32,000 bases of DNA, from the NCBI GenBank assembly GCA_024275415.1, contig JAJRZD010000091.1, forward strand, positions 87,470 to 119,469. Direction: 5' to 3'. Every line of letters begins with the position of its first letter. Position 1 is the stretch's first letter. The position numbers and the translations under genes were made by a program. Positions 4,734 through 23,560 of this stretch are shown piece after piece. The notes under the pieces are model-generated. The model did not search any database. It was given only the letters and a program-made list of their open reading frames with translations, and was not told the DNA's origin. The DNA comes from an archaeon. GTDB taxonomy: Archaea > Asgardarchaeota > Thorarchaeia > Thorarchaeales > Thorarchaeaceae.

Positions 4734-5435
4734 TCACATGTCCGCATAGATGATTCGGTTAGTCCAGAATCGTAGTGCTTCAGTATCAAACTTCAAGCCC
4801 TCTGTAAGGGTTTCAATGGGCAGCGCTCCTTCCCTGTACACCTTGATGCTTGAGAACCCATCAGAGTCATCATCAACTCCAATTATCGTTGAGTTCTTGT
4901 TGGTGCGGGATGGGCCGCCATCAATGTAAAGATCCACACGATCTCCCAGCTGCTCTAGTGCCACCGAAAGATCGAATGGGCTTGCCCCTCCCGATAGGTT
5001 GGCACTGGTTCCTGAGATTGGGGTTCCGAGCAGGTCAGCAATGGTTCTTGGGATTGGATGATCTGGAACACGAATAGCGATACTATTCTTGATACTTATC
5101 AAGTGCTCTGGTACTCCTTCCTTTGCAGAAACGATTAATGTCAAGGCGCCTGGCCAGAATAGTCTTGCAATGGCAAGTTCAAGCCCACTGAAGTCATGGT
5201 ATTCCCGACACTGCTTGCTATTAGCGAAAAGAAGTGGCAATCCGGACGAACGCTCTCTTTGCTTGACATCGAAAAGATTCTCGAATGCATCAGGGATCCT
5301 AGGGTCACATGCCAGTCCATAGCTTGTATCGGTTGGATACACTACGAGGCCTCCTTCTGAAAGAGTCTGTACTGCCTCGTCAATTGCGACCTTCGTGTCC
5401 TCTTGATCTGTGATTGTTATGATTTTGGCTGTCAC
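4734..5435 (-). CDS. tsaC: L-threonylcarbamoyladenylate synthase, single-domain TsaC/YrdC type
   Basis: YPTDTSYGLACD, KxR motif (KQR), FWPGALTLI, IAIRVPDHP and GTSANLSG; no C-terminal SUA5 domain. Start is GTG 5435 or ATG 5459. Confidence 0.9.
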   Translation of the reverse strand: MTAKIITITDQEDTKVAIDEAVQTLSEGGLVVYPTDTSYGLACDPRIPDAFENLFDVKQRERSSGLPLLFANSKQCREYHDFSGLELAIARLFWPGALTLIVSAKEGVPEHLISIKNSIAIRVPDHPIPRTIADLLGTPISGTSANLSGGASPFDLSVALEQLGDRVDLYIDGGPSRTNKNSTIIGVDDDSDGFSSIKVYREGALPIETLTEGLKFDTEALRFWTNRIIYADM

Positions 5436-5498
5436 ACTCTTACAATGAAAAACATCCATAAGAAGCTTTTATTCCTCTATGTTTTCGGAGGAATCCTC

Positions 5499-6494
5499 AT
5501 TCACGCTGTAATTCTTGCCGCCGGCGAAGGCACCCGACTAGGTGATTTGTCGCATCGCGTTCCCAAGGCACTACTACCTTGTCTAGATCGGACACTGATC
5601 GAGCATCTGGTGGACTCGCTATTCGCAGCAGGGATTGAACGAATATCAATTGGTGTTGGCTGGAAACGAGATGCAGTCATGAATCTCATAGAAACAAGAT
5701 ATCACAACCGTCCTGTGGAATGCATCCAAGTTTCTTCGTTCGCCATCGGCCCCTTGCAGACTCTTGCCACGGCATCAGATAATATCACACAAGAGGTCTT
5801 GATATGTCCCGTTGATCTCGTCACGTTTCCATCTACCATCTCCAAGTTCGTTAGCGGATTCAATTTACAGCACCCCTTTGATCTCGTTATGGCAGTTGAT
5901 CCCACTTCTTCAGCAGGCACTTTGGTTTCATATGACCGTATGCTTCGAGTGCATAGCCTCGGGGAAGGCAATGCATCCTCCGCAATGATGCTGATTGCCA
6001 CATCATCTTTTTTGGAATTCTGTCGGAGTGCTCTGTCTGATGGTGCTACAAGGGTTTCTGAAGCGATTGAACGTACTATTTCTGCAGGCGGAGAAGTCTT
6101 TGCCCGTGAGATACATGGGACATGGTATGACATCGACACATTGTCAGATCTGCTGAATACCAATATCACGCTCTTGAATACTCTACCGATGAGAAGTAAT
6201 GCTTTATTCATCCCTTCTGGAGATACTGTCGAAATAGGAGAATCTATCTCTCCCAGTGCGCGCGTAAATGCCGAAGCAGGCGTCACCTTTAGAGGTCCGG
6301 TATTGATATCTGGTACGGCAAGAATTGGAAAGAATGCCCGCATCGGTCCGAACGTCTGTATACAGGGTATATGTACTGTTGGTGATAACTGCATGGTGTC
6401 GGAATCTCTTATCTTTGGAAATTCGAATATCAATGCACACACAAGGCTCTCGCATTGTGTCATGCATGACTCTAATCTCTACATGGTGGGATGA
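5499..6494 (+). CDS. Sugar-phosphate nucleotidyltransferase with C-terminal left-handed beta-helix (GlmU/Mpg1-like)
   Basis: HAVILAAGEGTRLGDLSHRVPKALLP, WYDIDT and hexapeptide repeats (RIGKNARIGPNVCI). Start is uncertain: ATT 5499 after GGAGGA, or ATG 5445. Confidence 0.8.
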   Translation: MHAVILAAGEGTRLGDLSHRVPKALLPCLDRTLIEHLVDSLFAAGIERISIGVGWKRDAVMNLIETRYHNRPVECIQVSSFAIGPLQTLATASDNITQEVLICPVDLVTFPSTISKFVSGFNLQHPFDLVMAVDPTSSAGTLVSYDRMLRVHSLGEGNASSAMMLIATSSFLEFCRSALSDGATRVSEAIERTISAGGEVFAREIHGTWYDIDTLSDLLNTNITLLNTLPMRSNALFIPSGDTVEIGESISPSARVNAEAGVTFRGPVLISGTARIGKNARIGPNVCIQGICTVGDNCMVSESLIFGNSNINAHTRLSHCVMHDSNLYMVG

Positions 6495-6497
6495 TAT

Positions 6498-7106
6498 ATG
6501 TCACCAAGCAAGTTCAGACTCAGGCGGGTCTTCCGTATTCCTGTCCTCAAAGCAGCCGCTCCTTTCATCAAATATGGCGTGCATCCTAATACGATTACCT
6601 ATCTTTCACTCCTCATTGCTTTTGCTGGTTTCCTCATCTTGGGCATAACACAGAACCAATTGGTATATGGTGTATTCGTCTTTCTTGTAGGGTTCTTTGA
6701 TGGGGTTGATGGTGCTGTCGCTCGCGGGTCTGGCAAGGCATCTACAAAAGGGGCATTCACCGACTCGTTCATCGATAAGGTTTCTGAGGCAGTACTCCTT
6801 TTTTCAATTCCCATCTCCTTCCCGACTGGAGAAATCTTTGGGCTCTCACTAGATGCATGGGCGTATCTATGTTTCACCGGATGGTTGTTGACAAGCTACT
6901 CACGAGCACGAGCTGAATCCATAGGGCTCTCTGACTTAGATGTTGGACTGGGTGCACGCTCCGAGAGACTGTTTATCCTCAGCATTCTCTCTATCCTCTC
7001 TCTCGTTGAAGTCGGTCTTGTTGTGGTGACGGCCATCGGCATAGGCACTGCTGTATATCGCTTCATCTACTATCAAAGACTGATACCCGATGTCACCTCT
7101 AAATGA
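6498..7106 (+). CDS. pgsA: CDP-alcohol phosphatidyltransferase, archaetidylinositol-phosphate synthase-like
   Basis: Signature FDGVDGAVARGSGKASTKGAFTDSFID, plus GVHPNTIT, SYSRARAE, GLGARSER and several TM segments. Confidence 0.88.
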   Translation: MSPSKFRLRRVFRIPVLKAAAPFIKYGVHPNTITYLSLLIAFAGFLILGITQNQLVYGVFVFLVGFFDGVDGAVARGSGKASTKGAFTDSFIDKVSEAVLLFSIPISFPTGEIFGLSLDAWAYLCFTGWLLTSYSRARAESIGLSDLDVGLGARSERLFILSILSILSLVEVGLVVVTAIGIGTAVYRFIYYQRLIPDVTSK

Positions 7107-7622: not shown

Positions 7623-8636
7623 TTACTCAGACTCTATTGCAACAAAGAAAAGCTTGTTTCCTACCGCCTGAACTATCTCCTTGTTGCCATCGCCCGACAG
7701 GTCGCCATATGCGACCAACGAGTCAGCGCTTTTGCTTGCTGTCTTGATAGATGCATCTTCGAAGAACTCTCGCCCTTCAACGCTCAGCATTGAGAGCTTT
7801 GAGTTGGCCAGACTGACAAGAACCTGACCCTGTGACCTGGCCCCATCAATCAGCATCTCGCCGACCTTCATTGACGAGATGCTCCCGGGGGCTCGGATCC
7901 TTGCGCGAGTGCTGACTGACTTCTGTTCCACCTCGAACAGGGTGATTGTCTTCTCACTGCTGGCTATCACTACATCATCCGATCTTCTACCTGTCACACG
8001 TCCTGTTGCGACCAAGTTGACCTCCCCACTTACCTTCGCATTGGCGATTTCATGCAGGCGGTCGTCAGCATATTGATAGATATATAGGGTTTCGGAGTCA
8101 TCGCCAAAGACAAACCTCGTGTAGGATGTTCCCTCACTCCTCAGAGGTTTCATTGAGAAGACAGGTCGCTTAACGACCTTGTGTGCAAGCTTGTCGAGGA
8201 AAGTATCATACCATCCATAGCACCTGAGAGCATTGTCATTGGTTGCTACGACAACTTCCTCTTTCCCATCATTGAGAACATTTGCCACAACCAACGAGAT
8301 TGGAAGGTTTCCTAACATCGCATTGGACTTGACCTCGAGCGATTTCTTGCCGATGCTTACCACTCTCAGGGTATTATCAAGCCCTCCTACGACAAAATCA
8401 GGTGTACCATTTCCAGTGACATCTCCAATCCCAAATGACGAGATAGGGACAAGGTCTGTCATCCTGAACAGTTCCTTGACGACATTGTTGCCACCGACAT
8501 AATCGTAGACTCTCAGGCTCCCACTGACCGTAGCAAGCACTATGTTGTCCTTGCCATCTCCTGTCACATCCATCACCTCAAGGTTCGTGACCATTTCCTT
8601 GAGCGAATGGCTTGTTATCAGGTTCATCGATGGCAT
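7623..8636 (-). CDS. FG-GAP/VCBS-type repeat beta-propeller without signal peptide
   Basis: About seven repeats of roughly 45 aa: DVTGDGKDNIV, GDVTGNGTPDFVV, NVLNDGKEEVVV, GRVTGRRSDDVV, GDLSGDGNKEIV. No hydrophobic N-terminus. Confidence 0.8.
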   Translation of the reverse strand: MPSMNLITSHSLKEMVTNLEVMDVTGDGKDNIVLATVSGSLRVYDYVGGNNVVKELFRMTDLVPISSFGIGDVTGNGTPDFVVGGLDNTLRVVSIGKKSLEVKSNAMLGNLPISLVVANVLNDGKEEVVVATNDNALRCYGWYDTFLDKLAHKVVKRPVFSMKPLRSEGTSYTRFVFGDDSETLYIYQYADDRLHEIANAKVSGEVNLVATGRVTGRRSDDVVIASSEKTITLFEVEQKSVSTRARIRAPGSISSMKVGEMLIDGARSQGQVLVSLANSKLSMLSVEGREFFEDASIKTASKSADSLVAYGDLSGDGNKEIVQAVGNKLFFVAIESE

Positions 8637-8862: not shown

Positions 8863-10113
8863 TCATGGCGATTCAGGCATTAGTAGCCATTTCCATAGTG
8901 GAATATATCTTATTGAACTCCCGTTTTTCTTGTTTAATCCTTCATAATCCCATGTTATTATCTGCAAATCATTACAATCAAGTTCCTGAGAAGCTCTAAT
9001 GAGCGAACGTTCTTCTCTATTACGTGTCTTCTGGTCACTTATATCATAACTCACCTGTATGAGTTGTTCAAAGCCCCTTTGCCCTCGAACTAGAAAATCA
9101 ACTTCGTGTCCAGATTGCGATTGCCAGTAGAAAATCTCTCCACCATTTAGCAAGACCTGTTTATAGAGATTGATGGCAACAATTGATTCAACGCGACGTG
9201 TGATTGATTGCGATAATGGTGAGTATGGCTGAAATAGTCCAACATCGGTAGGATACACCTTTTTTGGCATCTGGGTGATTCCTCTGGGTGATTTTGAAAA
9301 CCGTGGAATTGTGAAGACCAGGAATGCTTCCTCAAAGTAGCCAAGCCACTCTGAAAGAGACCTCTTGCTCTTTCTTACTCCGATGCTCTTGAAGAATTTC
9401 TCTGCCTTCGATAACGAAAGTGCATTACCAAGATTTCTAATGATGAGGTTTCTGAATATTCGTGCTCCTTCTATATCACGTATTCCAAAACGCTCCACAA
9501 CGTCTCTAAAGAATATCGTGTCGAGATAGATACTCAAGAGTTCCATCTTTTCTGAAGACTGATTGACACGAGGAAATCCTCCCCACTCAAGATATCTATT
9601 TAGAAGCGCCTTTGCTTTGTTCCTGCGCCCTCCTTCATAATCAAAAAATTCTTTGAAGCTGAGAGGAAATACGATGCGCGTTATGCTTCTCCCTCTTAAC
9701 TCGGATGCAATCTCCTGAGCCAATAGCCTAGAACTTGAACCACTCACAAAAATATGAAACTTTCCCATATTATGGAGTCCCCTCAGCCATGATGACCAAT
9801 CATCAATGGACTGCACCTCATCAAGAAAAAGGACTCCTTTGTCAGGAATGAGTTCTTCAAGCAAATCTACGAGTTCTGTATATGTTACATTGCTCAACGG
9901 ATCCTCAAAGTCGATATAGACCATATTCTTTTTTCCAAACCTTTCTGCAAGAGTGTCAGCAATCTGATACATGAAATATGTCTTTCCCGCTCTCCTAGGG
10001 CCAATGATTGTGGTAATCTCTTTGGTGATTGCGAATGGAATCAACCTCTCAATAATCTTGAATTCTGTCTCTCTCCACTCAAATATCTTCTTTCTTAACT
10101 CCTGTTTACCCAT
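8863..10113 (-). CDS. AAA_14 + DUF4143 ATPase (COG1373-like)
   Basis: Walker A GPRRAGKT, Walker B LFLDEVQ, VSGSS, YLEWGGFP and C-terminal nuclease-like EVDFL...IQV. Visibly more AT-rich than its flanks. Confidence 0.88.
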   Translation of the reverse strand: MGKQELRKKIFEWRETEFKIIERLIPFAITKEITTIIGPRRAGKTYFMYQIADTLAERFGKKNMVYIDFEDPLSNVTYTELVDLLEELIPDKGVLFLDEVQSIDDWSSWLRGLHNMGKFHIFVSGSSSRLLAQEIASELRGRSITRIVFPLSFKEFFDYEGGRRNKAKALLNRYLEWGGFPRVNQSSEKMELLSIYLDTIFFRDVVERFGIRDIEGARIFRNLIIRNLGNALSLSKAEKFFKSIGVRKSKRSLSEWLGYFEEAFLVFTIPRFSKSPRGITQMPKKVYPTDVGLFQPYSPLSQSITRRVESIVAINLYKQVLLNGGEIFYWQSQSGHEVDFLVRGQRGFEQLIQVSYDISDQKTRNREERSLIRASQELDCNDLQIITWDYEGLNKKNGSSIRYIPLWKWLLMPESP

Positions 10114-10429: not shown

Positions 10430-10966
10430 ATGGTTTCTGAGCGAAACGAACCACGCCTCACATCAGAGCAGTGGAATTGTGATTCTCTGGTCTTGAGTAA
10501 AGAGCTCAGGTCGTTCGTCGAAGAGTTTGGTTCTTTCACACCTGATTGGTTTGTGGAGGTAAAATACCATCTTTTGAAAGGTGCAGGTTTCGATCGGACG
10601 ACCCGCGATGAACTGTGTTCTGTTTCCATTTACTCGCACACGTGTGACAAGTGTGACCATTTGTACATGTCAAAGAACTGTCTGTTGTGGTATCACCTTT
10701 TCAAGCTAATCACCTGGAAAACCGTCGGACGTGCCCCTCCTTGCATCAAGGCCGCCTACAGGAACAAGAGCATAAAGACTGTTGCTAACTTCCTGAAGCG
10801 TGCCAACCTTGTTTCTCCTCCCTACTACCTGTCCCGCGGTGTGCCTCTCTGTAGGAATATGCAAGACTGGGACTATTGCTCGCCTGATGAATACTGCAAG
10901 CAGATGAGGACTGGACGATTGCTTGCCTATAATGCGGTACGCGAACAGGTGAAGATCAATCGTTGA
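10430..10966 (+). CDS. Cys-rich protein resembling the primase large subunit (PriL) C-terminal Fe-S domain
   Basis: APPCIK...VANFLK...VPLCRNMQDWDYCSPDEYCKQMR..LLAY follows the PriL-CTD PPC...P-C-x8-C-x5-C...Y pattern. There is an extra N-terminal C-x8-C-x2-C-x8-C group. TATA-like CTTTAAG lies near 10389. Confidence 0.6.
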   Translation: MVSERNEPRLTSEQWNCDSLVLSKELRSFVEEFGSFTPDWFVEVKYHLLKGAGFDRTTRDELCSVSIYSHTCDKCDHLYMSKNCLLWYHLFKLITWKTVGRAPPCIKAAYRNKSIKTVANFLKRANLVSPPYYLSRGVPLCRNMQDWDYCSPDEYCKQMRTGRLLAYNAVREQVKINR

Positions 10967-11019: not shown

Positions 11020-12528
11020 TTGTTAGCTGAACCTGATGTGGAAATCACGAATCTTATCCGTCTCACAGGCTTTCGTGAGCAATTCATTAGTGATGCAAGA
11101 ACCGAAGGGAGTGATGATTGGGAGGATATCTGCAGCATTGTGCGGGAACATCAACGAATTCTAGCGCTCGGTGAGAAGCACACACGGCAAAAGGCAATCC
11201 AAGATCCCGTTCATGGTGCGATACTTCTTGAGCCTTGGGAACTCGACATAATCTCTGCTTGGGAAATGCTTAGGCTTCGTTACATCAGACAGTTGGGCCC
11301 TGCTCATATTGTATATCCTGGGGCAACACATACTAGGTTTGAGCACTGCATCGGGACCAATTTCCTAGCCCAAAAATGCATCCGTGTCGTGAACTACTGT
11401 GAGGATCTTGAGAACCCGCAGTTTGTGCCACTGTCGCAACTCCTTGATGCATATCATGAACGGGTGTTCCGTGCTGCTGCCCTCCTTCATGATGTTGGGC
11501 ATCCCCCTACTTCGCATACCATTGAGTTCGCATTGGAGAATTGGGCGGGTCTCTCCCATACTGATCTAGGCATGTTCCTCATCTTGCACAGTGACATCGC
11601 AGACATTCTGGAACAGAATGACATCTCCCCCTCTTCTATCGTGGATGTCCTCAAGAGACGGTCTGACGACCCTATCATGCAGCTCCTTTCAGAGTTCCTT
11701 GACAGTCCGCTGGACATCGATAAGACAGACTACCTGATTCGTGACGCACATTTCAGTGGTGTCGAGCTTGGCATCTTCCCTGCAGAGAGGGTGCTGCTTA
11801 CTAATCGAGTCGTCAGGGATTCCGAAGGACAATATCATCGCGCTTTCATGCTAAAAGCCCTCCACTCCCTTGAAGCCCTCATCCTTAGTAGGGCCTGGAT
11901 GTTCTCCGATCTGTATTTGCACCATGCTGTTAGAGTAGCAGAAGCCATGACTTCCAAGGCGACCTATTTACGTCTGAAAGAGGATGCATTCTCAAAGAAC
12001 GAATGCATAGCGTTCTTCACCCGGATGACGGATGGTGATCTCTTCAGATGGCTGGAGCGTTCGGAAGTCCCTTTTGTCCGGGAATATGCGGCACGGATCC
12101 GCTACCGGCGTCTCTTCAAGGTCATCACAGCGAAACCACTTTCCTCGTTCACCGAAGATGCCCGCTACCGGCTTCTACGCTTCGTGGATGACGTTGGAGC
12201 CCTTATCGAGGCAGAGCTGGATCTCCTGGAAGAGCCCGGTCAAGTCTTAATCGATGTCGTCAACCCCGTCTTGGGAGAACATTTCTTGAGTCAGATACCA
12301 ATTCTCATCGGTGGCAGTAATGGCTTTGATCTGGTTCCGCTGAACGAAACTCCTGAAGGGAAACCTTTGATGGAAACGTTAGTGCAACAACAACGAACTA
12401 TCCCTGCGGTGCGAGTGTATTCGGACTTGAAACATGCAGACGTGGTACGAAAGAGATTCGACAAGATGTTCCATGCACAACACATCAAGGCTCACCGTGA
12501 TGATGACCCCGAGTTCATCGAGTACTAG
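11020..12528 (+). CDS. HD-domain phosphohydrolase, SAMHD1/COG1078-type dNTP triphosphohydrolase family
   Basis: DPVHG, RLRYIRQLG, YPGATHTRFEH, LLHDVGHPPTSH, DIDKTDYLIRD and LYLHH; about 55 aa of N-terminal extension; TTG start after GGTGA. Confidence 0.9.
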   Translation: MLAEPDVEITNLIRLTGFREQFISDARTEGSDDWEDICSIVREHQRILALGEKHTRQKAIQDPVHGAILLEPWELDIISAWEMLRLRYIRQLGPAHIVYPGATHTRFEHCIGTNFLAQKCIRVVNYCEDLENPQFVPLSQLLDAYHERVFRAAALLHDVGHPPTSHTIEFALENWAGLSHTDLGMFLILHSDIADILEQNDISPSSIVDVLKRRSDDPIMQLLSEFLDSPLDIDKTDYLIRDAHFSGVELGIFPAERVLLTNRVVRDSEGQYHRAFMLKALHSLEALILSRAWMFSDLYLHHAVRVAEAMTSKATYLRLKEDAFSKNECIAFFTRMTDGDLFRWLERSEVPFVREYAARIRYRRLFKVITAKPLSSFTEDARYRLLRFVDDVGALIEAELDLLEEPGQVLIDVVNPVLGEHFLSQIPILIGGSNGFDLVPLNETPEGKPLMETLVQQQRTIPAVRVYSDLKHADVVRKRFDKMFHAQHIKAHRDDDPEFIEY

Positions 12529-13208
12529 ACGAGGTGCACGACCAAGTCCAGCACCTTGCGAAACCCTATCTCGATATAAATCACACCAAAGAGTGCCTCG
12601 ACGAGTGTACCCTTGATGTGTTCCATCTCTGACTTTGTGGGTGTCGGAGGATCGAAATGAATCCGGTTCTCGTAAAGCCCCCACTCGTCACATTTCTTTG
12701 ATAGGTGTTCGTTACTCACTAATCCCGAGCGCCTTTCTGTGAGATATCCCACATCAGATGCACGTGGTTTCCATATATGGTGAAGGATAGCCATGTCTAT
12801 TGCAGCATCGCCCAGCAGTGCCAGCATTTTCGCTGTTTCACTCAATGAGATCATGTCAGGGAAATACTTGCATTCTTGAAGGATGGTTTCTTGGTCACAA
12901 TAGTGTGTTTCCAGTTCGAGAAACAGATTCTTTGTGCTTGGCTGGAACAACAGGACCGTGAACAGTCCTTTCTCGTTAAGGGCGAAGTCAAACAACTTTT
13001 CAAGCTTGGGTGCTAACACCTCTTCGGCGTAGACTACCCGTCGGATAATGTAGTTGAGCTCTTTTAGCCAGCGCTCCATCTTCCTGCGGGTCCGTGCATT
13101 TCTCTGCGGAATCTTTTTCAGGTCTTGTTCGACAAGATCCTTTATCTTTACCAGATTCTCTTTCAGATAGAGTCTATGCCAGTCCAGCACTGAGTCACCA
13201 AGCGTCAT
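12525..13208 (-). CDS. RNase III-family protein lacking a dsRBD (Mini-III-like catalytic pattern)
   Basis: LEKLFDFALNEKGLFTVLLFQPS resembles the RNase III N-helix; LALLGDAA, LVSNEHL and GTLVEALFGVIYIE follow. Strong SD GGGAGG. Confidence 0.8.
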   Translation of the reverse strand: MTLGDSVLDWHRLYLKENLVKIKDLVEQDLKKIPQRNARTRRKMERWLKELNYIIRRVVYAEEVLAPKLEKLFDFALNEKGLFTVLLFQPSTKNLFLELETHYCDQETILQECKYFPDMISLSETAKMLALLGDAAIDMAILHHIWKPRASDVGYLTERRSGLVSNEHLSKKCDEWGLYENRIHFDPPTPTKSEMEHIKGTLVEALFGVIYIEIGFRKVLDLVVHLV

Positions 13209-14025
13209 TTACATCCTCCCTTGGATAGTATTGGATAACTGTCGCTCGTTCATCCTCATAGTTGTCCACATGGATTGCTGTGAGCGAATACTCCCCTGCA
13301 AGCCTGACCATCGCAAGGGTTGTGAGTGGTGTACCTATCGAGAGGTCGAGAATGACGTTATGAGTCGGGATTACCTTAATCACCTCGTCACGCATGAACT
13401 CATATACCGCTTTGAGGTTCCCTTTCTGAATATCTTCGTGTGATGTTGTTATCTCTATTGGGATGTCAAACCATTCTGTTTCGATGTCCATTTTTCCACG
13501 CGAGTCCCCCGTCATGAACCTGTCCAGACTTCGAAGAGTCTGACGTTTCCATATCCGTTCCTCTGTGAACAGAAGGAGTCTGCGTGGTTTGAACCGTTTA
13601 CTTCTCCGTAACCAGATAGCGAAGGGCCTCTGGTCGTCAGGTTGTCTGATCGATGCCACATATGCGATGGGACGGGCAACCTCCATCAATCCCATCTCCC
13701 TGAGAGCTTTCCTTACAGGATGATACGCTTTTGTACACAGTTCAAAGACGCGCTCACGGGACTCCCTCCTGCTCTTGATAATCCCCATCTTCTCAAGATG
13801 GGATGTGTTATGATAGAGCTTTGGGTCAGTGACCACGACTTTTTTCTCTCTCGCAGTTCTTTTTCCTTTCTGCTCGATGAGCGCAGCTGCCATGTCTTTC
13901 CTGATGCTCTCACGGAGTTCTGTCCCTGTCTTAGGACCTCCTTCGAGCTGATCAAGGATGACCCTCCGTGCACGGACGCTCTCGATTTCACGTCTTATTA
14001 TCTCGTCCGCAGTCTGTCCTAACAT
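13195..14025 (-). CDS. Winged-HTH (N-terminal) plus CARF-like Rossmann domain (C-terminal) transcriptional regulator
   Basis: Residues 18-100 are PadR/ArsR-like (ILDQLEGGPKTGTEL...LYHNTSHLEKMGII). Residues 119-256 have CARF topology: IAYVAS, RRLLLFTE, EWFDIP, NVILDLSIGTPLTTLAMVRLA, AIHV. Overlaps the downstream gene by 14 nt. Confidence 0.65.
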   Translation of the reverse strand: MLGQTADEIIRREIESVRARRVILDQLEGGPKTGTELRESIRKDMAAALIEQKGKRTAREKKVVVTDPKLYHNTSHLEKMGIIKSRRESRERVFELCTKAYHPVRKALREMGLMEVARPIAYVASIRQPDDQRPFAIWLRRSKRFKPRRLLLFTEERIWKRQTLRSLDRFMTGDSRGKMDIETEWFDIPIEITTSHEDIQKGNLKAVYEFMRDEVIKVIPTHNVILDLSIGTPLTTLAMVRLAGEYSLTAIHVDNYEDERATVIQYYPREDVNDAW

Positions 14026-14053
14026 CTGCTATCACACTCCTTTCTCAAATATG

Positions 14054-14230
14054 ACATATATATGTTTTGTATTCATCTATTATATCAAAAGACATCGAAG
14101 TTTTCTGAGCTCATCCCTCATTGTCTAAAACTCATGAAAGTGCTGAAAACAGCCACAAATTACGTTTTCGACACATACAGACAAAACCACGCTTGTCCAA
14201 TAACATATACATATATATCATATTCATCTA
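14054..14230. repeat. Two copies of a bipartite motif ACATATATAT...TATTCATCTA (14054-14079 and 14209-14230)
   Basis: Both 10-mers recur exactly, with 6-nt and 2-nt spacers. Copy 1 contains the perfect palindrome ACATATATATGT (14054-14065). Confidence 0.7.
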
Positions 14231-14250
14231 ATAAAAAGAGCTAAATCCGG

Positions 14251-14264
14251 TAAAGGCTTAAATA
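14251..14264 (+). promoter_or_regulatory. Putative BRE/TATA (TAAAGG-CTTAAATA) for actin
   Basis: Canonical arrangement about 95 nt upstream of the actin ATG; SD GAGGA at 14348-14352. Confidence 0.55.
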
Positions 14265-14359
14265 GAAAATCGCCCCTCATATGTTAGCACAGAGTTTGGG
14301 AAGTCTTCTTTCCAGTGCAAACTCTCTGTCTTTTCAAATGAGAAAACGAGGACCGAAAA

Positions 14360-15496
14360 ATGGAAGATGAATATCTTGCTGCTAAGCCCATTGTCATTGA
14401 CAACGGCACTGGTCTTAGCAAAAATGGCTACGCGGGTGAAGACCAACCCCGCAGCGTCTGGCCGACTTTGATAGGATACCCACGATACGAGTCGATCATG
14501 ACGGACGTTGACCACTATACACGCGACTATTACATCGGCGAAGAAGCGATTAACCTTCGCGGTGTCCTACGACTTGTCTACCCCATCACACATGGTGTGG
14601 TCGAGGACTGGGATGCCATCGAGAAGATCTGGAGCTACACCTTCTACAACGACCTGAAGGTGGATCCAAGTGAGAACCCCGTGTTACTTACAGAGGCACC
14701 CTTCAACCCACGAGAGAACCGTGAACGCATGGCAAGCGTGATGTTCGACAACTTCGGTGTTCCTGCAGTCTATGTCGCAACTCAGGCTGTGCTCTCGCTG
14801 TATGCATCAGGTAGGACAACAGGTCTGGTCATTGACTCTGGTGATGGTGTCACACACATCGTCCCTGTGTACGAAGGATTCTCCATCAACCACGCGATTA
14901 GGAGGATCGATCTTGCAGGACGTGATGTCACCGAGTACTTGCGCAGACTACTCAGGCAAAGAGGCTACTCCTTCGTGAGCGGTGCTGAGAAAGAAATCGT
15001 CCGTGATGTCAAGGAGAAGCTCTGCTACGTTGCTCTTGACCCAGAACGAGAACGGACTGTCGCTGACAAGGCAGGTGTCGATAAGCCCTACATGCTCCCC
15101 GACGGCGAGGTCATCACTGTGGGCGCAGAACGCTTCCAGGCACCAGAACTGTTCTTCAACCCGAGCGCGATTGGTCTTGATACATTGCCTCTCGATGAAC
15201 ACATTGTCGAGTCCATCAAGGCTTGTGACGTTGACCTGCGACGTGACCTCTACGCCAACATCGTACTCTCAGGCGGCTCTACTATGTTCCCCGGACTCAA
15301 GGAACGACTCCACAAGGAGATTACCGAACTTGTCCCCGAGAACATCGAGGTTCGCATCATCGCTCCACCCGAGAGACAATACTCCGTCTGGATTGGCGGG
15401 AGCATACTTGCCTCGCTCAAAACTTTCCAGAAGATGTGGGTTTCCCGCAAGGAATTCGAGGAACAGGGCCCCGAAGTCATCCACCGTTGCATCTAG
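14360..15496 (+). CDS. Actin (Asgard actin of the eukaryote-like, Lokiactin type)
   Basis: [83 protein letters not shown] and C-terminal GPEVIHRCI. Strong C-ending codon bias. Confidence 0.98.
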
Positions 15497-21200: not shown

Positions 21201-21779
21201 CTATTTCGCACTATATGTTTTTTCCAGAGACCACCTGAGTGATCGTTCGATCTCTTTCAATCTTGCTTCAGATCTATAGTTCCGGATGACAATCTCTTCT
21301 AGGATGCCATCCTCGGCCTTGACCTCGAAATCAAATGCGTCTTCCCAAGTCAGGCTTCCCTCTTCTACCTTGGTTCGATCCTCTTTCTGGAATTTCCCAA
21401 GGATCCGCTCGACAAAAAACCTTGCAAATGCACCCTTCTTGATGTCATAGGATGCTCGTTCAGATGGGATAGCACGAATCTCGTTTTTCGTAATATCCAG
21501 GGTTGCCAATACCAACTTTCTGCTGTAGTCATATAACATCACACTACGTGATTCAGGAATCGTAGTGCGTTCAGGCTTGGTAGGAACCGACTCGGTAGGA
21601 TCTGTTTCACTGAGAGATGCGTCGGCAGTGGCAAAACTTTTCGAGATAATGATTGCAGTCAATGCCTCTATGAATCCCTCAATTTGCTGGATTCGATGCC
21701 TGAGGTCTTCGAGTTCTTCCTCGAGATTCTTCTTCAATTCTAGTAGTACTGGTATTCTCGAGTCTGCCATAATCGCCAC
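21201..21779 (-). CDS. Conserved-looking hypothetical protein with N-terminal coiled coil
   Basis: Heptad LKKNLEEELEDLRHRIQQIE, a flexible linker, then an alpha/beta domain ending IVIRNYRSEARLKEI. Confidence 0.75.
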   Translation of the reverse strand: MAIMADSRIPVLLELKKNLEEELEDLRHRIQQIEGFIEALTAIIISKSFATADASLSETDPTESVPTKPERTTIPESRSVMLYDYSRKLVLATLDITKNEIRAIPSERASYDIKKGAFARFFVERILGKFQKEDRTKVEEGSLTWEDAFDFEVKAEDGILEEIVIRNYRSEARLKEIERSLRWSLEKTYSAK

Positions 21780-21891
21780 CTAGGTATCAATGGGCATTCA
21801 TATTGTGTCTTCTAATCTATTTTATCATGTGTGTTATGATTTAACGTCGTATGCATGTTACCAACTCATTCGTATCACGTAATGCTGCTCC

Positions 21892-22113
21892 TTATTTCCG
21901 CTCGATAACCTTGATTGCGAAGTCTGGGCAATGCATTTCACACCTGTGACACACTGTACATGCATCGAGATTCTCAACTTCAGGAAGGAAGAACCCCCTA
22001 TTGTCCACCCGTTCGGTTTGTTTCAGGACAGAATGAGGACATACGGCTATGCAAATATGACAGCCCTTGCATAGACGGGGATTGACAACTATTTCCTTTG
22101 CCTTCCTAGCCAT
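21892..22113 (-). CDS. 2x[4Fe-4S] ferredoxin (2-oxoacid:ferredoxin oxidoreductase delta-subunit-like)
   Basis: CKGCHICIAVCP and CTVCHRCEMHCPDFAI. Confidence 0.9.
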   Translation of the reverse strand: MARKAKEIVVNPRLCKGCHICIAVCPHSVLKQTERVDNRGFFLPEVENLDACTVCHRCEMHCPDFAIKVIERK

Positions 22114-22234
22114 CTATTGATGACCTCCAAGCTCGGCAGCCATCTTTAAGTTATAACAATATTCATCTGGTAACCCATTCGAGCAGATTATATTGGGAAC
22201 GACATACTTCCTAGTTGAGGTCGGTGAGCACTCG

Positions 22235-22945
22235 TTGAGCAGTTTCTTTGTTTTCATGTGTCCCAAATGCCGAAATTTCACTAATGCTCCCGTCGGGCAA
22301 AAACGACGAAGATGCAGTTATTGCGGAAGCATCATCGATATCACCAAGGCCGCAGTAGTTTTGGTTGACAGCCCTGAAGCTGCTTCTACTGCTGTGAAGA
22401 TATACAATGCATCTCGCGGTGGGGATGAGTTTGAGAAAGCTGTCGAACGTTCACGTGAACGGGTGAAGTCCTTGGTTCCCGCAGAAAGAATCTCCTCGTC
22501 TGGGCTGACACTGGAAGAGGATGTTCCTCCCACAGGGAAACGGGCACGGTTGTTGTCTATACTTGAGGAACGAGCTGCGACCAATCCTATCTCTCTTACA
22601 GAGCTGGAAAAGCTTTGTAACGCCAGCAAGTTAAGCTGGACTTGGGTTGAAAAACAACTTACTGCCATGGGGAATAGTGGGATGCTCATATTTCCGAAAC
22701 CTTGGACAGTGAAACTTGTACGGGACATTGGAAAGGCTGAAGAGCCTCAAGCGGTAATTGTTGATGTTAGCGATGACATCCTTGGGTTACTTAACCAAGA
22801 GAAAAAGCCTCTCCGCATTGATGCCATCATAGGTCATTTTGATAAACGATCCATCTCATCTGCATCTGTCATCGCTTCATTGGAGAAGCTGATGAGTGCA
22901 GGTGAAATCTACGAGCCCCGTCAGGGACATGTTTCCATCGTCTGA
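22235..22945 (+). CDS. DUF1922-like Zn-ribbon protein with two C-terminal winged helices
   Basis: CPKC...CSYC, followed by wHTH units ending LIFPKPWTVKLV and GEIYEPRQGHVSIV; TTG 22235 after GGTGAG. Confidence 0.7.
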   Translation: MSSFFVFMCPKCRNFTNAPVGQKRRRCSYCGSIIDITKAAVVLVDSPEAASTAVKIYNASRGGDEFEKAVERSRERVKSLVPAERISSSGLTLEEDVPPTGKRARLLSILEERAATNPISLTELEKLCNASKLSWTWVEKQLTAMGNSGMLIFPKPWTVKLVRDIGKAEEPQAVIVDVSDDILGLLNQEKKPLRIDAIIGHFDKRSISSASVIASLEKLMSAGEIYEPRQGHVSIV

Positions 22946-22988
22946 CGTTGTTCCGAACGATTCAATAGGGCTCGATGAGTCTTAGAAT

Positions 22989-23387
22989 GTGAGTTTCATG
23001 CCCATTGTCGAGCTAGTTGCGAAGAAGACATTGAAGAGGAATCCGACCCTCGGGGTGTCAGTCATCGACCTTATCGTTCTGCTCTGGCTTTTTTCTAACC
23101 CTTATTACAGTAAGAGACGGCAAGTCAGCTCGATTCGTAACGTTCTCAAGATGACCGAAACTCTCCAGACCCCTGGGAAGGGTATCGAGCTTACCGATGA
23201 TGAAGTGACACAAATCGTGCTTGGGAGCCTTGACACCCTCCAGAAGAAAGGACTGGTCTATCTACGATCCGCGGGAATTCATTTCATCAAGGGGACTCTT
23301 ACAGAGGCAGGGTTGAGCCTAATAGAGAGATCTGTTGACTCTCCTTCACTGCGTCGTGTGACTGCCGAGTTCGGGAACAACCCCTGA
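22989..23387 (+). CDS. Hypothetical winged-helix protein
   Basis: LGSLDTLQKKGLVY...GTLTEAGLSLIE is a MarR/PadR-like wing. Confidence 0.65.
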   Translation: MSFMPIVELVAKKTLKRNPTLGVSVIDLIVLLWLFSNPYYSKRRQVSSIRNVLKMTETLQTPGKGIELTDDEVTQIVLGSLDTLQKKGLVYLRSAGIHFIKGTLTEAGLSLIERSVDSPSLRRVTAEFGNNP

Positions 23388-23560
23388 ATTTGGGTGATCT
23401 TTCGGTTCTATGGAGTAAGTCGAGCGAAGAAATAAAAGATCACATCCGAACATTGGAATAAATGTGAAAGATTTGATGCCCTGAAGGAAGTCGACTCGTG
23501 AATTACCACTCTCAATATCAGATCATGGACTTATTCCACAGGGGCTGGTCTTTCATAATA

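Follow-up and report, generated by a model that had tools for sequence, protein, structure and literature searches.

A wHTH-CARF regulator encoded head-to-head with actin in Thorarchaeal and other Asgard archaea

The locus and the wHTH-CARF protein

The gene studied here lies in a 32-kb stretch of Thorarchaeal (Asgard) DNA, referred to below as the window. It is an open reading frame (ORF) that encodes a protein in which a winged helix-turn-helix (wHTH) domain precedes a CARF domain. The gene is divergent from an actin gene, with which it has a spacer in common, and is followed on its own strand by a gene for an RNase III-domain protein (Table 1). Its defining context, which is absent from a first-pass annotation of this DNA, is a conserved head-to-head pairing with actin.

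Table 1. Features in and around the wHTH-CARF gene, in window positions (Thor, the Thorarchaeal family of the window; A2, alignment of 24 diverse family members, Thor and non-Thor; VIA, VIA-align)
Feature	Position	Strand	Remarks
NTP-transferase/hexapeptide and CDP-alcohol phosphatidyltransferase genes	5403-7106	+	
FG-GAP beta-propeller gene	7623-8636	-	weak BBS2/BBS7/ITFG2 Pfam matches
AAA_14 + DUF4143 ATPase gene	8863-10113	-	between the FG-GAP gene and the Cys-rich ORF
Cys-rich ORF	10430-10966		178 aa
HD + HD_assoc_2 gene	11020-12528	+	SAMHD1/dGTPase-like
RNase III-domain gene, downstream	12525-13208	-	227 aa, no double-stranded RNA-binding domain (dsRBD); PF00636 E 2.4e-14
CARF stop/RNase III start overlap	13195-13208	-	14 nt; CARF TGA stop 13197-13195, RNase III ATG 13208-13206
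GGAGG	13219-13215	-	6 nt upstream of the RNase III ATG
wHTH-CARF gene	13195-14025	-	276 aa, ATG start; Thorarchaeal member of CARF_m5
C-terminal CARF domain	13216-13677	-	residues 117-270; VIA and Foldseek matches
Post-strand-4 CARF signature	13327-13347	-	D227-L-S-I-G-T-P233; Pro where K/R is usual
N-terminal winged HTH	13696-14025	-	residues 1-110; VIA matches to repressors
Thor-specific basic insertion	13831-13905	-	residues about 41-65; alignment A2 and predicted local distance difference test (pLDDT)
Recognition helix	within winged HTH	-	residues about 70-79, KLYHNTSHLE; AlphaFold2 helix and family alignment
Divergent spacer common to the CARF and actin genes	14026-14359		334 nt
Box copy 1	14042-14082	+	41 nt; adjoins CARF start, 17-57 nt upstream of the regulator ATG; 12-bp palindrome ACATATATATGT (14054-14065) and ATTCATCTATTA (14071-14082)
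Box copy 2	14193-14233	+	41 nt; its end lies 19 nt before the actin BRE/TATA; ACATATACATATAT and ATTCATCTAATA (14222-14233)
Actin B recognition element (BRE)/TATA-like element	14253-14266	+	AAAGGCTTAAATAG; putative promoter element
Actin 5' leader	14267-14359		about 90 nt
Inverted repeat in actin leader	14288-14298 with 14318-14328		
Actin gene, divergent partner	14360-15496	+	378 aa; PF00022 E 1.5e-133

The structure of the protein was modeled with AlphaFold2 from 25 homologues, and the model was compared with known folds by exhaustive VIA-align (wide) and by Foldseek. The model (mean pLDDT 83.5, predicted template modeling score 0.81) contains a winged HTH made up of helices at residues 6 to 16, 18 to 28, 34 to 52, and 70 to 79, a beta wing at residues 83 to 96, and a linker helix at residues 98 to 110. 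Residues 120 to 267 form an alternating beta/alpha, Rossmann-like domain. For residues 117 to 276, the 15 best VIA rows are CARF proteins without exception, and Foldseek matched Csm6 at E 1.3e-5. VIA matches of the domain include VC1899 (Z 12.8, 134 aligned residues, root mean square deviation [rmsd] 3.0), Cdn1 (Z 12.6, 139 residues, rmsd 3.1), Can2 (Z 12.0, 126 residues, rmsd 2.8), Csm6 (Z 11.8, 134 residues, rmsd 2.5), Card1 (Z 11.5, 134 residues, rmsd 3.2), and Csa3 (Z 10.9, 127 residues, rmsd 3.0). Residues 1 to 110 match repressors of the ArsR/SmtB/PadR type at Z values of 8 to 9.3 (CzrA, 9.3; RosR and Phr, 8.9; BigR and SmtB, 8.2; PadR too). The first-pass annotation had placed a wHTH at the N terminus ahead of a Rossmann domain and had proposed AlphaFold and Foldseek as the check on a C-terminal CARF domain; the model and the VIA matches agree on both. 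At the sequence level, the signals of the wHTH are faint (NCBIfam BigR, 0.0041), and the wHTH of a non-Thor relative matches Pfam PadR at 2.2e-5, which is under that model's cut-off. No Pfam model matches the wHTH-CARF protein, and a family-profile sequence search of solved structures gave no match. Prediction of a two-copy complex gave a homodimer score of 0.37 against a mark of 0.42, which speaks neither for a dimer nor against one.

The PADLOC-DB profile CARF_m5 (PDLC01987, "CARF_m5--CARF") matches the protein at E 5.8e-20. The alignment places residues 17 to 255 on profile positions 9 to 188 of 195, so that the profile takes in the CARF domain as well as the wHTH. CARF_m5 is matched by each of the 24 sequences in alignment A2, with the best E value (2.4e-80) among the non-Thor relatives, and many of them additionally match the CARF4, Csx1, and CARF3 profiles, the best match to a profile other than CARF_m5 being CARF4 at E 8.8e-10. 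Conservation is highest in the wHTH, where R20, Y71, N73, and R105 do not vary throughout the family; nor does L77, which lies with Y71 and N73 in the recognition helix. Based on the fold and the profile matches, we conclude that the protein is a wHTH-CARF one-component regulator of the Thor branch of CARF_m5, and this identification is secure. CARF_m5 is an already catalogued minor CARF clade, with a name that reportedly comes from the 2020 classification of CARF proteins by Makarova et al., and the family itself is not new. A literature search found no description of the linkage to actin or of any function of CARF_m5, and a full-text search for "CARF_m5" returned no paper.

The protein had initially been read as a permuted Csa3. 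Csa3 (Csa3a/Csa3b) of the Sulfolobales is a CARF-wHTH transcription factor that binds cyclic tetraadenylate (cA4) (PMC8699464; PDB 6WXQ). Like Csa3, the window protein joins a CARF sensor to a winged HTH in a small one-component regulator, and the two CARF domains superpose, as given above. Unlike Csa3, it has its domains in the reversed order, wHTH (residues 1 to 110) and then CARF (residues 117 to 270); its gene does not lie with cas genes and occurs in genomes without Cas10, and its Thor form lacks the basic pocket residue. Moreover, Card1, Can2, and Csm6 resemble its CARF domain no less than Csa3 does. The protein is not a permuted Csa3 but belongs to the separate clade CARF_m5, and the similarity of its CARF domain to CARF4/Card1/Can2 and Csx1 equals or exceeds that to Csa3. 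The best structural matches, VC1899, Card1, Can2, and Cdn1 of the CARF4 clade (Z 12.8 to 11.3), combine a CARF domain with a C-terminal PD-D/ExK nuclease effector in defense triggered by cyclic oligoadenylates. The window protein resembles them in its CARF domain and differs from them in that it starts with a DNA-binding domain and its chain includes no nuclease.

The hallmarks of CARF domains are a Ser or Thr that ends strand 1 and the signature [DN]x[ST]xxx[RK] directly after strand 4, with its basic residue in the ligand pocket (PMC4012209). Strand 1 of the window protein (residues 120 to 125) terminates in Ser125, at the expected position, and Ser is present there in 22 of 25 Thor sequences; motif I is therefore less divergent than had been supposed. 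Strand 4 (residues 223 to 227 by DSSP) leads into the signature listed in Table 1, in which D227 and S229 are kept and the residue six positions after the Asp (D+6), where the basic residue is expected, is Pro233. The signature is thus incomplete. The motif VILDLSIGT, previously compared with that of Csa3, does stand at the true signature position after strand 4, but it lacks the basic residue. Among the 25 Thor sequences, the D+6 residue is Pro in 22, Thr in two, and Ser in one, and it is Lys or Arg in none; in the 16 sequences from other Asgard families it is always Arg or Lys, and in the single genome of the sister family f2, which was counted apart, it is Ile. The CARF families of RtcR and Rv2818 also lack the basic residue after strand 4 and may bind distinct ligands (PMC4012209), and the loss therefore bears on the prediction of the ligand rather than on membership in the fold. 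The earlier suggestion of a different ligand is plausible, on the grounds of this loss and not of motif I.

Further changes set the Thor branch apart from the other members of CARF_m5. It belongs to the same family, and two insertions make it about 40 residues longer. One of these, the basic stretch in the wHTH (about residues 44 to 62; pLDDT about 60), had been noted from the window; it is real and, according to alignment A2, specific to the Thor clade, being absent from the non-Thor relatives; the second Thor-specific insertion sits in the CARF domain. The recognition helix reads KLY[HF]NT[SK]HLE in the Thor family and LYFNLQxLE elsewhere, and a changed operator is therefore expected in the Thor family. 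Unlike the other members, the Thor form also has a coupled RNase III gene. Judged from the sequences, the Thor form is the derived, divergent end of CARF_m5, in which the pocket residue has been lost, the recognition helix has changed, the candidate operator differs, and an RNase III gene has become coupled to the regulator in this family only. These changes are what is new here about an otherwise catalogued family.

A total of 54 homologues of the window protein were found, and those with a name are almost all labeled Thorarchaeota. Within the Thor family, which comprises 86 genomes (85 sisters and that of the window), the gene is present in 79 (78 of the sisters and the window genome), with two matches in three assemblies and one match in each of the others. 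It is a core gene of the Thor family and not a defense gene. A profile search over 400 genomes that sampled the phylum detected weaker full-length relatives of 220 to 270 aa in at least 13 other Asgard families, found none in f8 (0/31), f11 (0/22), or f13 (0/12), and found few in f22 (10/135). (Here and below, f2, f4, f5, f6, f8, f11, f13, f15 to f19, and f22 are labels of Asgard families, and G with a number denotes a genome.) A profile search of 1.84 billion representative proteins gave 131 matches at E<=1e-3, 17 of them below 1e-30, and the named members are all labeled as Asgard (Thor, Freyr/Jord, Hermod, Baldr, Hod, and Loki). The family is apparently small and restricted to Asgard archaea. 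It is largely missing from the Loki-type families sampled, and no Asgard archaeon in culture is known to carry it.

Pairing with actin and the common spacer

We examined 30 Thor loci, of which 27 contain the starts of both the CARF and the actin gene and the remaining 3 stop short of actin. The gene order, actin divergent from wHTH-CARF and RNase III, with an HD gene converging on these, is the same in 30/30 loci as far as the contigs reach, and the CARF gene is head-to-head with actin in 27/27. In these 27 loci, the spacers between the two genes are 314 to 507 nt long, with conserved blocks inside them. The actins themselves are 92 to 99% identical within the Thor family and 65 to 89% identical to those of other Asgard families.

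Outside the Thor family, two sets of loci were analyzed. The first consists of 20 loci picked by the CARF match alone. Actin is head-to-head with the regulator in 12 of these, across 88 to 560 nt; in the other eight, it is 3.3 kb away in one, a contig end intervenes in one, and actin is absent in six. The second set consists of 15 further loci picked for having the CARF and actin genes on the same contig, of which 13 are head-to-head and 2, both from f17, are tandem. In the tandem loci (L078 and L079, from G123 and G124), wHTH-CARF lies upstream of actin on the same strand with 230 to 340 nt between them, and a TCATC/CTATC-rich box precedes the actin TATA. Head-to-head pairing thus occurs in at least eight Asgard families beyond the Thor family, in which the regulator is only 22 to 30% identical to that of the window. 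When the neighborhoods of the pair (+-5 to 7 kb) were compared across nine families, CARF and actin were the only gene families common to all of them, and the next best was found in four. In families without the regulator, unrelated genes adjoin actin.

The non-Thor spacers contain an approximately 20-bp palindrome centered on GATATC, about 15 to 25 nt upstream of the actin TATA-like box, which within families is a conserved island in otherwise diverged spacers. In leave-one-family-out scans of loci of 8 to 13.5 kb with a position weight matrix (PWM) of this palindrome, the best match fell in the spacer in 6 of 8 families, with scores of 12.9 to 22.0. In f15, in which the regulator is on another contig, the best match of the 4-kb actin locus lies 113 to 139 nt upstream of actin and scores 15.3 to 17.2, and the scan found nothing comparable upstream of the unlinked regulator gene. 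In families that lack the protein, the 400 nt upstream of actin scored no higher than 11.7 at any of 20 loci, and <=3.9 at 14 of them. Palindrome and protein thus occur together across lineages, and comparative studies usually argue for a cognate pair on this kind of evidence. When the pattern was searched genome-wide with one mismatch allowed, it was found only at the actin spacer in G007, at the actin spacer and one other site in G117, and at the actin spacer and two others in G304. The genome-wide count is not above that of a reversed-pattern control and gives no sign of a large regulon. A site upstream of the BRE/TATA would fit an activator in archaea, and the direction of regulation suggested by this position is taken as provisional here.

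The window spacer holds a different pair of candidate sites. Box copies 1 and 2 (Table 1) form a direct repeat, D1, and are 73% identical, with one copy at each promoter. The 12-mer ATTCATCTAWTA of the boxes occurs twice in the 3.5-Mb assembly, both times in this spacer, and the two words of box copy 1, the palindrome ACATATATATGT and ATTCATCTATTA, are found in the assembly only in this spacer. Across 26 Thor loci, the BRE/TATA-like element AAAGGCTTAAATAG is the best-conserved block of the spacer. The words ATACATA/ACATATA are about 10-fold enriched in Thor spacers over shuffled spacers and about 30-fold over the flanks; across the Thor genera they lie mostly at -150 to -177 relative to the actin ATG and close to where the regulator gene starts, and 5 of the 27 spacers have none. 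Two other candidates for a Thor operator were set aside: the ATGAC/GTCAT words are inconsistent between genera, and a GATATC operator like that of the other families was dropped for the window, as the PWM picks the spacer in only 6 of 27 Thor loci.

The actin 5' leader is conserved across Thor genera and contains AGCACAGAGTT and then, right before the ATG, GAGGACCGA. It also contains the inverted repeat listed in Table 1, so that a structured leader is possible.

On the other side of the regulator, several neighboring genes are of types found at other Asgard loci. NTP-transferase, CDP-alcohol phosphatidyltransferase, and FG-GAP genes recur near the CARF-actin pair in f2, f4, f6, and f16; genes of the first two types adjoin the regulator in f6, and a propeller gene follows it in f2. 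This distribution suggests an older, larger conserved block into which Thor-specific genes may have been inserted. The AAA_14 + DUF4143 ATPase gene of the window is of a type frequent in mobile or defense contexts, and the GC content of the window falls to 0.42 to 0.43 at 9 to 11 kb.

Independence from CRISPR and the RNase III-domain partner

It had been noted at the outset that no CRISPR locus lies nearby. This holds for the locus but not for the genome. The 32-kb window contains no tandem or CRISPR array, and a Pfam scan of 16 ORFs from about 5.4 to 21 kb gave no match to a cas family; four ORFs matched nothing, and the others include the AAA_14 ATPase, the HD/SAMHD1-like protein, actin, the FG-GAP propeller, NTP-transferases, HypD, and DsrE. 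The window genome (G000) does, however, encode a Cmr2-type Cas10 (a 642-aa frame on contig C83, positions 21757 to 23544, above the TIGR02577 cut-off) and two Cas1 proteins (contigs C113 and C26). The genome search for Cas10 and other cyclases proposed in the first-pass annotation thus turned up a Cas10, and it detected no SMODS cyclase. The window genome is one of only 8/86 Thor-family genomes that match the Cas10 profile TIGR02577, compared with 79/86 that have the wHTH-CARF gene. No Cas10 match was found in three gene-bearing genomes: the closed Asgard genome G002, the Asgard genome G007 (20 contigs), and G320, a Thor assembly of one contig that is 86% complete. Based on these distributions, independence from CRISPR, as originally proposed, is supported at the family level, and cross-talk is possible in the window genome. 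The notion of a defense island made up of a CARF sensor and an RNase effector was rejected, as both genes are core, single copy, and fixed in place.

Translational coupling of the regulator to the RNase III-like gene, another early proposal, is borne out by the 14-nt overlap, in which the stop codon of the CARF gene lies inside the RNase III gene, and by the GGAGG upstream of the RNase III ATG. In other Thor loci the two genes abut, and by tblastn coordinates they overlap or lie no more than a few tens of nucleotides apart. The RNase III gene is present in 80/86 Thor-family genomes and is directly 3' of the CARF gene in all inspected loci whose contig holds both. It is found in no other CARF-bearing family, and the regulator is monocistronic there. 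Full-length homologues of the RNase III-domain protein (31 to 38% identity) are patchy in Loki-type families, in varied contexts and without a CARF neighbor. Among solved structures, the best sequence matches of the protein are to RNase III domains of Drosha (E 2.5e-6), with Dicer also matched, and not to bacterial RNase III. Its RNase III signature reads MLALLGD, with Ala at the position of Drosha's Glu, and its catalytic activity is therefore uncertain.

Most Thor loci have the HD gene at this position, convergent with the RNase III gene; two have the Cys-rich ORF there instead.

Proposed function and alternatives

The function that we consider most likely, and to which we give moderate confidence, is local control of actin, of the regulator's own operon, or of both from the common spacer. 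According to this proposal, the protein is the Thorarchaeal orthologue of an Asgard-wide wHTH-CARF one-component regulator, which would bind, probably in dimeric form, the operator boxes between its own gene and actin and would thereby control transcription of actin, of its own operon, or of both. The regulator's activity would be set by its CARF domain through a small, probably nucleotide-derived ligand that does not come from type III CRISPR. In the Thor family this circuit would have been rewired: the basic pocket residue became Pro, the recognition helix and with it presumably the operator changed, and a gene for a dsRBD-less RNase III-domain protein became translationally coupled, so that one transcript would specify both regulator and RNase. 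The two proteins may also be linked physically.

Several observations weigh against local control of actin. The CARF and actin genes are unlinked in f15 and in some genomes of f17 to f19. In several families the surroundings of the pair also include NTP-transferase, CDP-alcohol phosphatidyltransferase, and FG-GAP propeller genes, and given this residual wider synteny part of the linkage may reflect inherited gene order. The palindrome failed the PWM test in f4 and f5, and a different factor could bind it. It is not recognizable in the Thor family, where it gives the top match in the spacer in 6/27 loci, and its best score in the window spacer is 3.2. The boxes of the window are candidate operators only; they are AT-rich and could be promoter elements. 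Finally, ligand sensing in the Thor form may be altered or lost, as it has lost the Lys or Arg by which nucleotide ligands are usually contacted, and ligand gating is less certain for this form than for the rest of the family.

Inherited gene order would be the whole explanation of the adjacency if the protein were purely an autoregulatory repressor of the wHTH-CARF + RNase III operon. Many regulators of the ArsR/PadR type autoregulate, box copy 1 lies 17 to 57 nt from the regulator's own ATG, and some wider synteny persists around the pair, all of which are consistent with such a repressor. However, CARF and actin are the only pair that survives in all nine families compared, the non-Thor palindrome adjoins the actin TATA box and in f15 stays with actin and not with the regulator, and box copy 2 ends 19 nt upstream of the actin BRE/TATA. 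Taking these together, we regard pure autoregulation as unlikely. It is also unlikely that the main role of the Thor protein is in RNA processing, together with the RNase III-domain protein and with DNA binding secondary. On this reading, the CARF domain would sense an RNA end or an RNA-derived ligand, as reported for RtcR, and would either control the RNase or be a mere dimerization module. The 14-nt overlap and the abutting genes of other Thor loci, the fixation of the RNase III gene in 80/86 genomes beside the CARF gene wherever a contig holds both, and the loss of the basic residue, which is shared with the RtcR and Rv2818 families (they may bind distinct ligands; PMC4012209), would fit a role in RNA processing. 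This role is difficult to reconcile with a wHTH that is the best-conserved part of the protein, its R20, Y71, N73, and R105 being invariant, and with the other regulator-bearing lineages, all of which lack the RNase III gene; the patchy Loki-type RNase III homologues have no CARF neighbor, and the Ala at Drosha's Glu position makes RNase activity itself uncertain.

It is very improbable that the protein serves type III CRISPR as a Csa3-like accessory transcription factor, encoded apart from the cas genes, that answers cyclic oligoadenylates made by Cas10. The CARF fold does match proteins that bind cA4 or cyclic hexaadenylate (cA6), Csa3 included, the [DN]x[ST]xxx[RK] signature is complete in the non-Thor members, and the window genome has a Cmr2-type Cas10 and two Cas1 genes. 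Nevertheless, Cas10 is in 8/86 Thor-family genomes and the gene is in 79/86, and G002, G007, and G320, all of which carry the gene, gave no Cas10 match. The window has neither an array nor, among its 16 scanned ORFs, a cas gene, the Thor form lacks the basic pocket residue, and the gene has a fixed chromosomal place beside actin and not in a defense island.

For control of actin from the common spacer, a functional precedent is RtcR, in which a divergent CARF domain is joined to an AAA+ sigma54 activator that regulates the RNA repair operon rtcBA. Like RtcR, the Thor protein would be a housekeeping regulator that is independent of CRISPR, and its CARF domain lacks the post-strand-4 Lys or Arg; the ligand of RtcR is predicted to be different (PMC4012209). 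The two differ in architecture (RtcR is an AAA+ ATPase of the bacterial enhancer-binding type), in targets, and in taxonomic range, and no sequence match between them was seen. A broader scheme, which we offer tentatively and consider doubtful as a whole, is that Asgard actin expression is under a dedicated, small-molecule-gated CARF regulator that responds to a housekeeping nucleotide signal and that the Thor circuit has been rewired so as to tie RNA processing to cytoskeletal control. In this scheme, the CARF sensor would have been borrowed from CRISPR signaling or would be ancestral to it.

Among the eukaryotic signature proteins of Asgard archaea, actin is the flagship, and we found nothing published on the control of its expression. 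A ligand-sensing factor encoded head-to-head with actin, together with a matching palindrome at the promoter, provides a concrete, testable hypothesis on this control. We know of no CARF domain with a role outside CRISPR defense other than that of RtcR, and the regulator described here would extend CARF signaling beyond antiviral defense into housekeeping regulation. The Thor form, in which the same regulator has lost its pocket residue and gained an RNase III partner, would be a natural experiment on such a circuit.

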